A DNA stretch of 5,541 nucleotides from a virus (taxonomy: Duplodnaviria > Heunggongvirae > Uroviricota > Caudoviricetes). Below the pieces are notes generated by a model. It was given only the letters and a program-made list of their open reading frames with translations, searched no databases and was not told the DNA's origin. The DNA lies in IMG/VR virus record IMGVR_UViG_2579778899_000001, positions 1 through 5,541 of that record. One strand, 5' to 3'. The position numbers and the translations under genes are program-made. Positions within the stretch are counted from its first letter, which is position 1. Every line of letters begins with the position of its first letter. This document shows, piece after piece, positions 1 to 5,541 of this stretch.

Positions 1-1
1 C

Positions 2-154
2 ATCAGCCTGATGCTGACCGAGCGAACGCTGGTCAGTGAGGTGGACGGCGCACTGCATGTGAAGAATATCCCGGAACCCCCGCCGCCGGAGCCGGTCACC
101 CGCCCGATGGAGCTTTATATCAATGGCGAACTGGTGAGCAAGTGGGATGAATGA
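2..154 (+). CDS. 3' end of a tail completion protein gene (gpR-like), 5'-truncated by the window edge
   Basis: Frame 2 is open from the window start to TGA at 152-154 (…PEPPPPEPVTRPMELYINGELVSKWDE*). High-GC codon usage matches the downstream structural genes. Its stop overlaps the start of the next gene (ATGAATGA), as expected for coupled late genes. Assignment to gpR rests on synteny with P2 (R precedes S), not on recognised sequence. Confidence 0.5.
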   Translation: MSLMLTERTLVSEVDGALHVKNIPEPPPPEPVTRPMELYINGELVSKWDE

Positions 155-599
155 GTTTAAGCGTTTTGAAGACCGGCTGACCGGACTGATTGAGTCGCTG
201 TCACCGTCAGGGCGTCGGCGGCTGAGTGCAGAGCTGGCGAAGCGTCTGCGGCAGAGTCAGCAGCGTCGGGTGATGGCACAGAAAGCCCCGGACGGCACAC
301 CCTACGCGCCACGCCAGCAGCAGAGCGCCAGAAAAAAGACCGGTCGTGTTAAGCGAAAAATGTTTGCGAAACTTATCACCAGTCGTTTTTTGCATATCCG
401 CGCCAGCCCGGAACAGGCATCAATGGAATTTTACGGCGGGAAGTCGCCGAAAATCGCCAGTGTGCATCAGTTCGGTCTGTCGGAAGAAACCCGGAAAGAC
501 GGTAAGAAAATTGATTATCCGGCGCGTCCTCTGCTCAGCTTTACCGGTGAGGATGTGCAGATGATTGAAGAGATTATCCTGACTCACCTTGAGCGTTAG
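147..599 (+). CDS. S: tail completion / virion morphogenesis protein gpS
   Basis: 150-aa ORF, the size I recall for P2 gpS. The basic N-terminal region (RRRLSAELAKRLRQSQQRRV) and overall sequence look like the P2 gpS family. The start overlaps the upstream stop by 8 nt. GC-rich coding composition. Confidence 0.8.
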   Translation: MNEFKRFEDRLTGLIESLSPSGRRRLSAELAKRLRQSQQRRVMAQKAPDGTPYAPRQQQSARKKTGRVKRKMFAKLITSRFLHIRASPEQASMEFYGGKSPKIASVHQFGLSEETRKDGKKIDYPARPLLSFTGEDVQMIEEIILTHLER

Positions 600-629
600 T
601 TTTATCCAGGCAGAGGCTGATGCGCAATT

Positions 630-664
630 AAACATTGAGCGGCCATGCTGGTCGCTCAATGTTT
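630..664. terminator. Perfect inverted repeat (12-bp stem AAACATTGAGCG / CGCTCAATGTTT, 11-nt loop) between convergent genes; candidate bidirectional terminator
   Basis: Read directly: 630-641 is the exact reverse complement of 653-664. It lies 31 nt past the gpS stop and 7 nt past the minus-strand cargo gene stop. T-runs follow on both strands (TTTAATT on minus, TTTATGAGTGATTTTTATTT on plus), but neither is a clean U-tract. Confidence 0.4.
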
Positions 665-670
665 AGAGGT

Positions 671-1456
671 TTATGAGTGATTTTTATTTGATGCTTTGTA
701 TTCTAAAACCTTCTTATTGGCGTAAAAGAATTTTGTATATGACAGGAATATAACCAGACCTGAAGTGAAATAGACGAGGGATAGTATTAATAATGCTTTT
801 TTGTGACTGTTATTATCTTTAATCTCCTGGCTTAACCATTCGGAGTCCTCCTCGTTTAGCTGTAAGAGCTTATTGCAGGCGATCTCAGGAAGTGTGTCTT
901 TTATAAATACGTTTTGCAGTCTCTTGCAATCGGCAAGGCTATAAGTTTTATTAAATTCAACTGCTTTATTTTTGAAGGATAAAAGAACTTTGTCACTATA
1001 AACATAGTACATCATGTTTTTATATGGTATGCCTATGGCATCCCTTACTATAACGGATTGTTCGTTGTGTATGTAACATGCGAGGAGAATGTAAAAAATA
1101 CTGGCCAGAATTACAATTATTGTTTTAATTATGTGTGGTGGTTTTGTTATGTCACCCCAGATGCGAGTAAGGAAAAAATACGATGTTTTTAGTTTTCCAT
1201 CAATCAGTCCCTGCTGTATCATTCTCACATTTTCAATGCCTGATACATTGATTCCATTAATTATTTTAAATAGTTGAATGTCGCGCCACTTGCGGTCAAG
1301 TCTTTTTAATTTTTTGTCTGAATATCCAAAATTGAAATAATGTGCAATAAGCCTCATAAGGTTACTTTTACCAAAGCTAAAAAATGCTAATACTGCAAAG
1401 CTACAAAGGAAAAAAACGATTAGCCCCCACACATTAGTCACATTATAGCTGACCAT
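671..1456 (-). CDS. hypothetical 261-aa integral membrane protein on an AT-rich cargo island in the S-V intergenic position (orf30-like position of P2); function unknown
   Basis: Uninterrupted 786-nt ORF filling the whole AT-rich island. Strong SD (AAGGAG) about 6 nt upstream of the ATG at 1456 on the minus strand. AT-biased codons with K/N/I/F/Y-rich protein. Three hydrophobic segments of about 20 aa (residues ~9-28, ~108-129, ~221-240; nt ~1373-1432, ~1070-1135, ~737-796) separated by Lys/Arg-rich loops. No catalytic motif recognised. Confidence 0.8.
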   Translation of the reverse strand: MVSYNVTNVWGLIVFFLCSFAVLAFFSFGKSNLMRLIAHYFNFGYSDKKLKRLDRKWRDIQLFKIINGINVSGIENVRMIQQGLIDGKLKTSYFFLTRIWGDITKPPHIIKTIIVILASIFYILLACYIHNEQSVIVRDAIGIPYKNMMYYVYSDKVLLSFKNKAVEFNKTYSLADCKRLQNVFIKDTLPEIACNKLLQLNEEDSEWLSQEIKDNNSHKKALLILSLVYFTSGLVIFLSYTKFFYANKKVLEYKASNKNHS

Positions 1457-1539
1457 TACGCTCTCCTTGAATGTTGTCTGGTAGTTCTACAAATGAATCC
1501 AGATAGCATAACTTTTATATATTGTGCAATCTCACATGC
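1457..1539. promoter_or_regulatory. 83-bp divergent control region between the cargo gene (-) and gpV (+); contains the cargo gene RBS and presumably the late tail-operon promoter (P_V equivalent)
   Basis: Cargo RBS (CTCCTT on plus = AAGGAG on minus) at 1462-1467. Candidate -10 TATATT at 1518-1523 on the plus strand upstream of the V ATG at 1540, with no good -35, as typical for activator-dependent late promoters. Imperfect TGT…ACA dyad at 1472-1491 (spacing 14 or 11, not the N12 I recall for Ogr-type sites). Minus-strand TTGCAC (-35-like, plus coordinates 1523-1528) could serve the cargo gene. All calls are by eye. Confidence 0.3.
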
Positions 1540-2181
1540 ATGAACACTCTCGCAAATATTCAGGAACTCGCGCGCGCACTGCGCAACATGATTCGCACCG
1601 GCATTATCGTCGAAACCGACCTTAACGCCGGTCGCTGCCGTGTGCAGACCGGCGGCATGTGCACTGACTGGCTTCAGTGGCTGACCCATCGTGCCGGTCG
1701 TTCGCGCACATGGTGGGCACCTTCCGTGGGGGAGCAGGTGCTGATTCTGGCCGTGGGCGGTGAACTCGACACGGCGTTCGTTCTGCCGGGGATTTATTCC
1801 GGCGATAACCCCGCGCCGTCTGCGTCGGCGGATGCCCTGCATATCCGTTTCCCTGACGGGGCGGTGATTGAATATGAACCCGAAACCAGTGCACTCACGG
1901 TAAGCGGAATTAAAACAGCCAGCGTGACGGCTTCTGATTCTGTTACTGCCACGGTGCCGGTGGTCATGGTGAAAGCATCAACCCGCGTCACCCTGGACAC
2001 ACCGGAGGTGGTCTGCACCAACAGGCTGATTACCGGCACGCTGGAAGTGCAGAAGGGCGGGAAGATGCACGGCAACATCGAGCATACCGACGGGAAATTC
2101 ACTTCTAACGGCGTTCAGGTGGATGACCACGGTCACGGTGGTGTTAAGTCAGGTGACAACTGGACGCAGGGGACAAAATGA
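1540..2181 (+). CDS. V: baseplate central spike protein gpV
   Basis: The ORF track opens at a TTG at 1522; the first ATG is at 1540 (MNTLANIQELARAL…), giving 213 aa, close to the ~211 aa I recall for P2 gpV. His-rich C-terminal apex (…HGNIEHTDG…DDHGHGG…) is typical of spike tips. The stop overlaps the W start (ATGA). Confidence 0.8.
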   Translation: MNTLANIQELARALRNMIRTGIIVETDLNAGRCRVQTGGMCTDWLQWLTHRAGRSRTWWAPSVGEQVLILAVGGELDTAFVLPGIYSGDNPAPSASADALHIRFPDGAVIEYEPETSALTVSGIKTASVTASDSVTATVPVVMVKASTRVTLDTPEVVCTNRLITGTLEVQKGGKMHGNIEHTDGKFTSNGVQVDDHGHGGVKSGDNWTQGTK

Positions 2182-2525
2182 CAGCGCGTTATCTCGGAAT
2201 GAATCGCAGTGATGGCCTGACTGTCACTGACCTTGAGCATATCAGCCAGAGTATCGGCGATATCCTGCGCACGCCGGTCGGCTCACGGGTGATGCGTCGT
2301 GATTACGGCTCGTTGCTGGCGTCAATGATTGACCAGCCGCAGACCCCGGCGCTTGAGTTGCAGATTAAGGTCGCCTGTTACATGGCGGTGCTGAAATGGG
2401 AACCCCGCGTCACCCTGTCATCCGTTACCACGGCGCGCAGCTTTGACGGGCGAATGACGGTCACGTTAACCGGCCAGCACAACGACACCGGCCAGCCACT
2501 TTCATTAACCATCCCTGTGAGTTGA
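2178..2525 (+). CDS. W: baseplate wedge protein gpW (T4 gp25-like)
   Basis: 115 aa, the size I recall for P2 gpW. SD AGGGGA 4 nt upstream of the ATG. Position immediately after V and before J. Sequence looks like the GPW/gp25 family. Confidence 0.8.
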   Translation: MTARYLGMNRSDGLTVTDLEHISQSIGDILRTPVGSRVMRRDYGSLLASMIDQPQTPALELQIKVACYMAVLKWEPRVTLSSVTTARSFDGRMTVTLTGQHNDTGQPLSLTIPVS

Positions 2526-2529
2526 AACC

Positions 2530-3438
2530 ATGCCGATTATCGACCTGAACCAGCTACCCGCACCGGATGTGGTCGAGGAGCTGGACTTTGAAACCATTCT
2601 TGCCGAACGCAAGGCGACACTGATTTCCCTTTACCCGGAAGACCAGCAGGAGGCGGTCGCCCGTACCCTGACGCTGGAATCCGAGCCTCTCGTCAAACTG
2701 CTGGAGGAAAATGCGTATCGCGAGCTTATCTGGCGTCAGCGTGTGAATGAGGCTGCACGGGCGGTGATGCTGGCCTGTGCAGCCGGTAATGACCTTGATG
2801 TGATTGGTGCCAATTACAACACCACGCGCCTGACTATCACCCCGGCAGATGATTCGACTATCCCGCCGACACCGGCAGTGATGGAGTCTGACACCGATTA
2901 TCGTCTGCGTATTCAGCAGGCGTTTGAAGGCTTAAGCGTCGCCGGGTCGGTGGGAGCCTATCAGTATCATGGTCGCAGTGCCGACGGGCGTGTCGCGGAT
3001 ATCTCTGTCACCAGTCCGTCTCCGGCCTGTGTCACCATCTCTGTGCTGTCACGTGAAAATAACGGTGTGGCATCTGAAGACCTGCTGGCTGTGGTGCGCA
3101 ACGCCCTGAATGGCGAGGACGTCAGACCGGTGGCCGACCGTGTGACCGTGCAGTCTGCCGCCATCGTTGAATACCAGATAAATGCCATGCTTTACCTTTA
3201 CCCTGGCCCCAAAAGCGAGCCCATTCGCGCTGCCGCCGTGAAAAAACTGGAAGCGTATATCACGGCACAGCACCGGCTGGGGCGCGACATCCGACTGTCT
3301 GCCATTTATGCCGCTTTGCATGTGGAAGGCGTGCAGCGTGTCGAACTGGCTGCACCGCTGGCCGACATCGTGCTCAACAGTACGCAGGCGTCTTTCTGTA
3401 CCGAATACCGCGTCGTGACCGGAGGCTCGGATGAGTGA
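2530..3438 (+). CDS. J: baseplate assembly protein gpJ (T4 gp6-like)
   Basis: 302 aa, the size I recall for P2 gpJ. Starts 4 nt after the W stop. Its stop overlaps the I start (ATGAGTGA). Confidence 0.8.
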   Translation: MPIIDLNQLPAPDVVEELDFETILAERKATLISLYPEDQQEAVARTLTLESEPLVKLLEENAYRELIWRQRVNEAARAVMLACAAGNDLDVIGANYNTTRLTITPADDSTIPPTPAVMESDTDYRLRIQQAFEGLSVAGSVGAYQYHGRSADGRVADISVTSPSPACVTISVLSRENNGVASEDLLAVVRNALNGEDVRPVADRVTVQSAAIVEYQINAMLYLYPGPKSEPIRAAAVKKLEAYITAQHRLGRDIRLSAIYAALHVEGVQRVELAAPLADIVLNSTQASFCTEYRVVTGGSDE

Positions 3439-3961
3439 TTCGCGCCTGCTGCCGACCGGCTCATCACCGCTTGAAGTCGCCGCTGCAAAAGCCTGTGCGG
3501 AAATTGAAAAAACGCCGGTCAGTATTCGTGAGCTGTGGAACCCGGACACCTGCCCGGCAAATCTGCTGCCGTGGCTGGCGTGGGCGTTTTCGGTCGACAG
3601 ATGGGATGAAAAGTGGCCGGAAGCGACCAAACGCGCCGTTATTCGCGATGCCTATTTCATCCACTGTCATAAAGGCACTATAGGTGCAATCCGGCGTGTG
3701 GTGGAGCCGCTGGGCTATCTCATCAACGTGACGGAGTGGTGGGAAACCAGTGACCCGCCCGGCACCTTCCGGCTTGATATTGGTGTACTGGAAAGCGGTA
3801 TCACAGAGGCAATGTATCAGGAAATGGAACGGCTGATTGCTGATGCCAAACCTGCAAGCCGCCACCTTATTGGCCTGAACATTACCCGGGACATTCCCGG
3901 CTACCTGTTCGTCGGTGGTGTGGCTTATGACGGCGATGTAATTACGGTTTACCCCGGATAA
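3431..3961 (+). CDS. I: baseplate/tail protein gpI
   Basis: 176 aa, the size I recall for P2 gpI. Start overlaps the J stop by 8 nt. Conserved position between J and the tail-fibre gene. Confidence 0.8.
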   Translation: MSDSRLLPTGSSPLEVAAAKACAEIEKTPVSIRELWNPDTCPANLLPWLAWAFSVDRWDEKWPEATKRAVIRDAYFIHCHKGTIGAIRRVVEPLGYLINVTEWWETSDPPGTFRLDIGVLESGITEAMYQEMERLIADAKPASRHLIGLNITRDIPGYLFVGGVAYDGDVITVYPG

Positions 3962-3971
3962 GTGAGGAATA

Positions 3972-5531
3972 ATGAGCACAAAATTCAAAACCGTTATCAC
4001 CACTGCCGGTGCAGCAAAGCTGGCAGCGGCAACCGCACCGGGAGGGCGGAAGGTCAACATTACCACGATGGCCGTCGGGGATGGCGGTGGTAAATTGCCT
4101 GTCCCGGATGCCGGACAGACCGGGCTTATCCACGAAGTCTGGCGACATGCGCTGAACAAAATCAGCCAGGACAAACGAAACAGTAATTATATTATCGCAG
4201 AGCTGGTTATTCCGCCGGAGGTGGGCGGTTTCTGGATGCGTGAACTTGGCCTGTACGATGATGCGGGAACGCTAATTGCCGTGGCGAACATGGCCGAAAG
4301 TTATAAGCCAGCCCTTGCCGAAGGCTCAGGGCGTTCGCAGACCTGCCGCATGGTCATCATCGTCAGCAGTGTGGCCTCAGTGGAGCTGACCATTGACACC
4401 ACAACGGTGATGGCAACGCAGGATTACGTTGATGACAAAATTGCAGAACATGAACAGTCACGACGTCACCCTGACGCCTCGCTGACCGCAAAAGGTTTTA
4501 CTCAGTTAAGCAGTGCGACCAACAGCACGTCTGAAACACTGGCCGCAACGCCGAAAGCGGTAAAGGCCGCGTATGACCTTGCTAACGGGAAATATACCGC
4601 ACAGGACGCCACCATAGCGCGAAAAGGCCTTGTCCAGCTCAGTAGTGCGACCAACAGCACGTCTGAAACGCTCGCCGCAACACCAAAAGCCGTTAAGACG
4701 GTAATGGATGAAACGAACAAGAAAGCGCCATTAAACAGCCCTGCACTGACCGGAACGCCAACGACGCCAACTGCGCGACAGGGAACGAATAATACTCAGA
4801 TCGCAAACACGGCTTTCGTTATGGCCGCGATTGCCGCCCTTGTAGACTCGTCGCCTGACGCACTGAATACGCTGAACGAGCTGGCGGCGGCGCTGGGCAA
4901 TGACCCGAATTTTGCTACCACCATGACTAATGCGCTTGCGGGTAAGCAACCGAAAGATGCCACTTTGACGGCGCTGGCGGGGCTTGCTACTGCGGCAGAC
5001 AGGTTTCCGTATTTTACGGGGAATGATGTTGCCAGCCTGGCGACCCTGACAAAAGTCGGGCGGGATATTCTGGCTAAATCGACCGTTGCCGCCGTTATCG
5101 AATATCTCGGTTTACAGGAAACGGTAAACCGAGCCGGGAACGCCGTGCAAAAAAATGGCGATACCTTGTCCGGTGGACTTACTTTTGAAAACGACTCAAT
5201 CCTTGCCTGGATTCGAAATACTGACTGGGCGAAGATTGGATTTAAAAATGATGCCGATGGTGACACTGATTCATACATGTGGTTTGAAACGGGGGATAAC
5301 GGCAATGAATATTTCAAATGGAGAAGTCGCCAGAGCACCACAACAAAAGACCTGATGAATCTTAAATGGGATGCTCTGTATGTTCTTGTTAAAGCCCTTT
5401 TCAGCAGTGAAGTAAAAATATCTACAGTCAATGCGCTGAGGATATTTAATTCATCTTTTGGTGCTATTTTTCGCCGTTTGCGTATTTTCATGAAAGGAGA
5501 TCACTCAATAACTTCCATCGAGATCGGGTAA
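3972..5531 (+). CDS. H: tail fibre protein gpH-like (519 aa), with a compositionally distinct low-GC C-terminal portion
   Basis: SD GAGGA upstream of the ATG at 3972. Two copies of the tail-fibre repeat motif QLSSATNSTSETLAATPKAVK. Ala/Thr/Asn-rich shaft-like sequence. A conserved-looking block (WAKIGFKNDADGDTDSYMWFETGDNGNEYFKW) is followed by an AT-rich terminal segment. Shorter than the ~669 aa I recall for P2 H. Confidence 0.75.
   Translation: MSTKFKTVITTAGAAKLAAATAPGGRKVNITTMAVGDGGGKLPVPDAGQTGLIHEVWRHALNKISQDKRNSNYIIAELVIPPEVGGFWMRELGLYDDAGTLIAVANMAESYKPALAEGSGRSQTCRMVIIVSSVASVELTIDTTTVMATQDYVDDKIAEHEQSRRHPDASLTAKGFTQLSSATNSTSETLAATPKAVKAAYDLANGKYTAQDATIARKGLVQLSSATNSTSETLAATPKAVKTVMDETNKKAPLNSPALTGTPTTPTARQGTNNTQIANTAFVMAAIAALVDSSPDALNTLNELAAALGNDPNFATTMTNALAGKQPKDATLTALAGLATAADRFPYFTGNDVASLATLTKVGRDILAKSTVAAVIEYLGLQETVNRAGNAVQKNGDTLSGGLTFENDSILAWIRNTDWAKIGFKNDADGDTDSYMWFETGDNGNEYFKWRSRQSTTTKDLMNLKWDALYVLVKALFSSEVKISTVNALRIFNSSFGAIFRRLRIFMKGDHSITSIEIG
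4505..4697 (+). repeat. Imperfect direct repeat (about 60 nt per copy, 132-nt period) inside the tail-fibre gene, encoding two identical 19-aa fibre-repeat motifs
   Basis: Copies at ~4505-4565 and ~4637-4697 (AGTGCGACCAACAGCACGTCTGAAAC…). Amino-acid sequence is identical (SSATNSTSETLAATPKAVK), with mostly synonymous nucleotide differences. Confidence 0.7.
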
Positions 5532-5541
5532 TAACATTTGA

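Follow-up and report, generated by a model that had tools for sequence, protein, structure and literature searches.

The tail-fibre gene H that ends this stretch of P2-like prophage DNA is truncated by an insertion of the transposable element ISEc12, and the fall in GC content over the same part of the gene is a separate and older feature that belongs to a native receptor-binding module of the Sv type; we put the probability of this reading at roughly 0.93. The window, by which we mean the whole 5,541-nt stretch of DNA that was analysed, is the entire 5541-bp draft contig AYQT01000168.1 (GCA_000503455.1), as found by exact-protein look-up. It holds tail and baseplate genes from a P2-like E. 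coli prophage, in which the baseplate genes V, W, J and I precede H in the synteny of gpH of Peduovirus, and the gene order S-orf30-V-W-J-I-H is the same as that of P2. The features of the window are as follows.

11 to 154: R, 3' end.
147 to 599: S.
671 to 1456, minus strand: P2 orf30, a low-GC ORF between S and V.
1522 or 1540 to 2181: V.
2178 to 2525: W.
2530 to 3438: J.
3431 to 3961: I.
3972 to 5531, plus strand: H ORF, 519 codons.
3972 to 5478, plus strand: authentic 5' part of the P2-type H, codons 1-502 and the first base of codon 503.
5094 to 5119, plus strand: single relic gix/cix-like crossover site GTTATCGAATATCTCGGTTTACAGGA of the Gin/Cin/Pin family, encoding ..IEYLGLQE..
5094 to 5478, plus strand: Sv-type receptor-binding module, proximal part only, low GC (0.418).
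5226 to 5321, plus strand: conserved block WAKIGFKNDADGDTDSYMWFETGDNGNEYFKW (WAKIGF...EYFKW), aa 419-450.
5474 to 5478, plus strand: predicted 5-bp target-site duplication CCGTT, from the 5-bp duplications of other ISEc12 copies.
5478 to 5531, plus strand: IS-encoded read-through codons 503-519 (LRIFMKGDHSITSIEIG) and TAA stop (5529 to 5531).
5479 to 5541, plus strand: left terminus of ISEc12, IS21 family, 63 nt (TGCGTATTTTCATGAAAGGAGATCAC...).

The H ORF is short for its kind, as the earlier note had remarked, at 519 codons compared with the 2010 nt and 669 aa of P2 H. An intact comparator is the prophage of E. coli GN02461 (NZ_CP095533), in which positions 1102 to 6579 of the extracted locus (L001) align with window positions 1 to 5478 without gaps and with 2 mismatches in 5478 nt (99.96% identity), after which the similarity drops off abruptly and wholly at 5478. 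In this relative H is intact at 5073 to 7118, encoding 681 aa, and G, a 175-aa Caudo_TAP tail-fibre assembly gene, starts 3 nt after it. At the junction the intact allele reads ...TTCGCCGTT followed by CTGAAGAAAACCTGTATATCATTCC... and runs on beyond the equivalent of 5478 as ...CTGAAGAAAACC..., whereas in the window the same ...TTCGCCGTT is followed by TGCGTATTTTCATGAAAGGAGATCAC... The abrupt and complete loss of similarity at 5478 rules out a frameshift or a point nonsense mutation as the origin of the truncation.

The sequence that takes over at 5479 is identical at all 63 of its positions to the start of an istA/istB element that interrupts H in another prophage (NZ_CP170378, locus L002). 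There the element occupies 6598 to 9181 (2584 bp), starting with TG and ending with CA, and contains istA at 6791 to 8332 (Pfam rve and Mu-transpos_C_2) and istB at 8347 to 9096 (IstB_IS21), with IstA annotated as "IS21-like element ISEc12 family transposase" and IstB as its helper ATPase. The same 63-mer has 5066 occurrences in a set of 5426 complete E. coli genomes, 1703 of which carry it, with a median of 3 and a maximum of 14 per genome, on both chromosomes and plasmids and under unrelated annotations. Codon 503 (5478 to 5480) spans the boundary between H and the element, the ORF reads ...GAIFRR-LRIFMKG... across it, and the stop of the ORF sits within the insertion sequence and does not mark where the gene really ends. 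The earlier note had listed an insertion truncating H among three possible explanations, and this one proved correct, with the left end of ISEc12 starting at 5479. It had also found the last ~50 residues unlike a fibre tip, which applies to the final 17 (aa 503-519), these being foreign, and does not apply to the preceding ~33, which are authentic and identical to the intact homologue.

We propose that ISEc12 inserted between 5478 and 5479, in the same direction as H, its left end directly following the 5' part of the gene. The H reading frame runs 17 codons into the end of the element before stopping, giving the 519-codon ORF, and H is left as a pseudogene that falls 179 residues short of the 681-aa fibre at its C-terminal end. 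The presence of a full-length ISEc12 at this site is assumed from the 63 nt seen in the window and 127 nt seen in a second assembly (L008, described below), and the left junction may reflect a simple insertion or an IS-associated deletion or rearrangement alike. For a simple insertion, the right junction is predicted to read ...GGTAATACGCA followed by CCGTTCTGAAGAAAACCTGTATATC..., with CCGTT duplicated. The contig ends 63 nt into the element because assemblers break at multicopy repeats, and since it breaks there the DNA downstream is not visible in this short-read draft.

A known comparator is the ISEc12 insertion that inactivates tssM in E. coli ST131 clade C, where it is fixed in the lineage, and draft contigs end at ISEc12 in ST131 assemblies as well (PMC10711316). 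The IS terminus is identical in tssM and in H, and the target frame is split in both. In tssM of EC958 the element is flanked by the 5-bp duplication ACTGC (PMC10711316) and the reference copy in L002 is flanked by ATATC, so that the duplication is seen at the reference copies, whereas in H it is predicted only. The two cases also differ in their targets, a type VI secretion (T6SS) gene being hit in ST131, whereas here it is a prophage tail-fibre gene in an allele that is rare (2 contigs).

The part of the fibre that is missing, 179 aa in comparison with the 681-aa allele, can be placed by its domains and by a solved structure. Pfam matches on H comprise Phage_tail_fib at aa 1-151, two Phage_fiber_2 repeats, and Gp34_trimer at aa 419-529, the last of which is cut by the break after aa 502. 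When set against the solved Mu tail fibre S (5YVQ), the intact H aligns over its residues 375-680 with Mu residues 166-503, which places H residue 502 at about residue 293 of Mu S, and the lost part corresponds to about residues 294-504 of Mu S, including the distal receptor-binding end. The conserved C-terminal end of the fibre, ...FRPIQKYINGTWYNVAQV, is lost with it. The window H, authentic up to residue 502 of 681, thus has no complete C-terminal receptor-binding region, and the contig carries no G; the intact relative has both. The block WAKIGFKNDADGDTDSYMWFETGDNGNEYFKW, which the earlier note took for a conserved region preceding variable fibre tips, is indeed nearly invariant: P2 H, Mu S, PhiR68_1 S and the intact H of GN02461 agree throughout it save for one G/S position. 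It falls within the region aligned to 5YVQ, and the region that holds it is detectable at 72-78% nucleotide identity in large fibre genes of Aeromonas and Stenotrophomonas phages. Further upstream, H contains a 76-nt direct repeat (4490 to 4565 and 4622 to 4697, 81.6% identical), each copy of which encodes ...QLSSATNSTSETLAATPKAVK..., the Pfam Phage_fiber_2 repeat; one copy is conserved in Mu S.

The decay of GC content towards the end of H that the earlier note described is real, and it has another origin. In 200-nt windows from 4901 to 5500, GC falls through 0.555, 0.50, 0.45, 0.42 and 0.38, the first value being that of 4901-5100 and the last that of 5301-5500, and by segment of the gene it is 0.556 from 3972 to 5093 and 0.418 from 5094 to 5478. 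This drop exceeds local fluctuation, because no 385-nt stretch in the backbone from 1522 to 5093 lies below 0.522. The inserted element was considered as the cause of the fall and ruled out, since the fall begins ~385 nt upstream of it and is present in uninterrupted alleles: the intact GN02461 prophage shows the same drop, with GC at 0.436 across the final 924 nt of H and G itself at 0.451, as does P2 H.

What begins at 5094 is instead recognisable by homology. The stretch from 5094 to 5396 is common to P2 H, while 5397 to 5478 is absent from P2 H and present in P2_AC1, pro147, P88, 503458 and the Mu-like PhiR68_1, all of which match to 5478 and on into the intact allele; P2 H, Wphi and R18C match only up to 5396, a further mosaic joint. 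Up to that joint the window H and P2 H are ~96% identical in nucleotide sequence and share the N-terminal collar domain and the fibre repeats, and it is from 5397 that the 681-aa allele of this lineage, interrupted in the window, has a different middle of the distal module. Homology to Mu, D108, SfMu, PhiR68_1 and 503458 (Peduoviridae) starts at 5088-5091, and that to P1 (C segment) and P7 (Sv') at ~5113-5157. At the protein level, P2-type and Mu-type fibres cannot be aligned before ...LGLQETV and are nearly identical beyond it.

That P2-, Mu- and P1-like phages exchange host-range modules has long been recognised, and such exchange has long been described for P2 H. From 5094 onwards H is made up of an AT-richer Sv-type host-range module circulating among these phages, joined to a P2-specific shaft at a relic invertase crossover site and fixed in one orientation in this lineage, without an invertase. 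The horizontal exchange suggested by the earlier note therefore stands as an old background from 5094 and falls as the cause of the shortness, because the module is present in intact full-length fibres too. As for what that note had said would count against it, the authentic part of the C-terminus does lie in a conserved full-length fibre with the assembly gene directly downstream, while a composition-linked homology breakpoint does exist, at 5094; this breakpoint is old and common to full-length fibres, and nothing new.

The crossover site itself, GTTATCGAATATCTCGGTTTACAGGA, lies where the P2-specific constant part of H gives way to the shared Sv-type module. It aligns to the left boundary annotated for the G segment of Mu (4008 to 4033 in our Mu locus L006, with the boundary at 4021), and over the 26-nt window scored, 5094 to 5119 matches Mu gixL at 22 of 26 positions, the right half and the next ~16 nt being identical and 3-4 mismatches lying in the left half. 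The window, the two related prophages (L001 and L002) and P2 each contain one copy of the site, and no inverted second site was found at 7 or fewer mismatches within ~6 kb in L001, L002 or P2. In the same scan Mu, PhiR68_1 and 503458 had two inverted copies, and P1 gave cixR only, its cixL being taken from the record annotation. Neither an invertase gene nor an alternative Sv'/U' cassette is present in the annotated L001, L002 and P2; 503458, PhiR68_1, Mu and P1 each have an invertase or serine recombinase. In comparison with the Mu G segment and the P1 C segment, which are switched by Gin and Cin, the module from 5094 is 89-91% identical in nucleotide sequence to the Sv of Mu and P1, and in Mu and its relatives the module boundary coincides with the crossover site, as it does in the window; unlike Mu and P1, the intact relative and P2 have one site, no invertase and no alternative cassette. 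The module in the window is a fixed, non-invertible descendant or relative of the Mu and P1 modules.

Three other accounts of the short H were weighed against the ISEc12 insertion. The H of the window might be the constant part of a Gin/Cin/Pin-type switch whose alternative cassettes and invertase lie past the end of the contig, an arrangement that the earlier note had entertained, and the match of 5094 to 5119 to gixL invites this idea, as does the existence of such switches in some Peduoviridae, for example phage 503458 with its DNA invertase, two inverted sites and two fibre/chaperone sets. It is nevertheless highly improbable, given that the truncation at 5478 lies away from the crossover site and that in the 99.96%-identical prophage H and G are followed by a Lit-family gene, a DUF2634 gene and a sheath gene, with no invertase, second cassette or inverted site; with the partner site, cassette and invertase lacking from both the intact relative and P2, an invertible or alternative cassette downstream is unsupported. 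That the short H with its low-GC end is a genuine and complete alternative fibre, its mosaic tip acquired by horizontal replacement, is scarcely credible, even though the distal part of H is indeed mosaic, with P2 H diverging at 5396, Mu- and P1-like phages sharing sequence from ~5090, and GC dropping. Intact 681-aa fibres hold the whole of this mosaic module and match the window H exactly as far as residue 502, the last 17 codons come from the end of a transposable element with thousands of copies in unrelated contexts, and the break interrupts the Gp34_trimer domain (aa 419-529).

It also had to be considered that the junction is an assembly chimera, a misjoin at the contig end, as it lies 63 nt from the end of a short-read draft contig and the exact junction was found in no complete E. 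coli genome, where only the insertion allele 20 nt downstream reaches into the element. The exact 35-nt junction pattern likewise had no match among GTDB species representatives, a collection with few E. coli genomes. A second assembly, GCA_016858965.1, encodes the identical 519-aa product on a 44-kb contig (L008) that differs from the window at one base and runs 127 nt into the element, identical to ISEc12 at all 127 positions, before it too ends. Misassembly is very unlikely, because this separate assembly shares the junction and because H gives way to the element precisely where the IS terminus has its first base (TG...), as transposition predicts; moreover, two closed hybrid assemblies resolve the independent insertion of ISEc12 that lies 20 nt away. 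The allele with the H/IS junction was found on two contigs in a collection of 15 billion proteins (3 and 2 samples in the look-up), and the presence of the same junction in both assemblies suggests vertical inheritance.

The ISEc12 insertion in the window is not the only disruption of this gene. The element that splits H in L002 (6598 to 9181), and likewise in H2 (NZ_CP170374), lies 20 nt downstream of the window site in the same orientation, and since the site is a different one it represents an independent insertion. A 509-aa product (P0004, ending ...RRSEENLYI) indicates the same +20-nt site in three more contigs. A 477-aa protein from the 90% cluster of the window H (P0013, WP_439108717.1) is authentic up to aa 461 (...STTTKDL) and then continues as IEPPRKSWRLNSLRKR, a tail that matches neither H nor the ISEc12 read-through and which marks a third disruption, ~40 codons upstream. 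In the 66-member cluster of 3972 to 5528, most of the members listed are "partial" H proteins, 374-524 aa long, that stop where their contigs do. E. coli genomes have the Sv-type module at a median of 2 places and a maximum of 14, and being multicopy it is a place where short-read assemblies often break; such breaks are a general source of seemingly truncated fibre genes. The two ISEc12 insertions, 20 nt apart and alike in orientation, together with the third disruption, would fit a preference of ISEc12 for AT-rich Sv-type fibre modules or repeated selection for inactive fibres in P2-like prophages, but we consider either unlikely. Ascertainment would fit equally, the search having covered this 640-nt region and the cluster being one that groups truncated forms of similar length.

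Two further loci in these prophages hold cargo-like genes. The ORF at 671 to 1456 (GC 0.337) encodes a 261-aa predicted membrane protein that is identical to P2 orf30 at 259 of 261 aa, belongs to phrog_2407 and is labelled "nonessential" in the P2 record; it is absent from the L002 prophage, in which synteny is otherwise kept. Its product had no Pfam or PADLOC match, and with 99% identity to P2 orf30 the ORF was dropped as a candidate for novel defence cargo. The position of orf30 is one of the recognised variable cargo loci in P2-like phages (PMC3091744). The second locus, downstream of G in L001 (7913 to 10544, the Z/fun cargo locus), contains the Lit-family phage-exclusion gene and, on the reverse strand, the DUF2634 gene, at a GC content of 0.30-0.39.

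Two unrelated causes had been merged in the earlier note, namely the ISEc12 insertion, which accounts for the shortness and for the odd last 17 residues, and the composition of the module, which accounts for the GC content. The truncation of H is an ordinary gene disruption of an already-known kind and not a new fibre tip, and the 519-aa "tail fibre", as a pseudogene with 17 IS-encoded residues, is unfit to be treated as a new tip or used for host-range prediction. There is a general trap here, in that ORFs near contig ends in draft assemblies can owe their C-termini to repeat elements. The break at 5094, on the other hand, is a clear example of host-range module exchange at a relic invertase site. 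Judged by homology, the prophage of these strains would make no functional fibres, and any particles that it formed would probably fail to adsorb.
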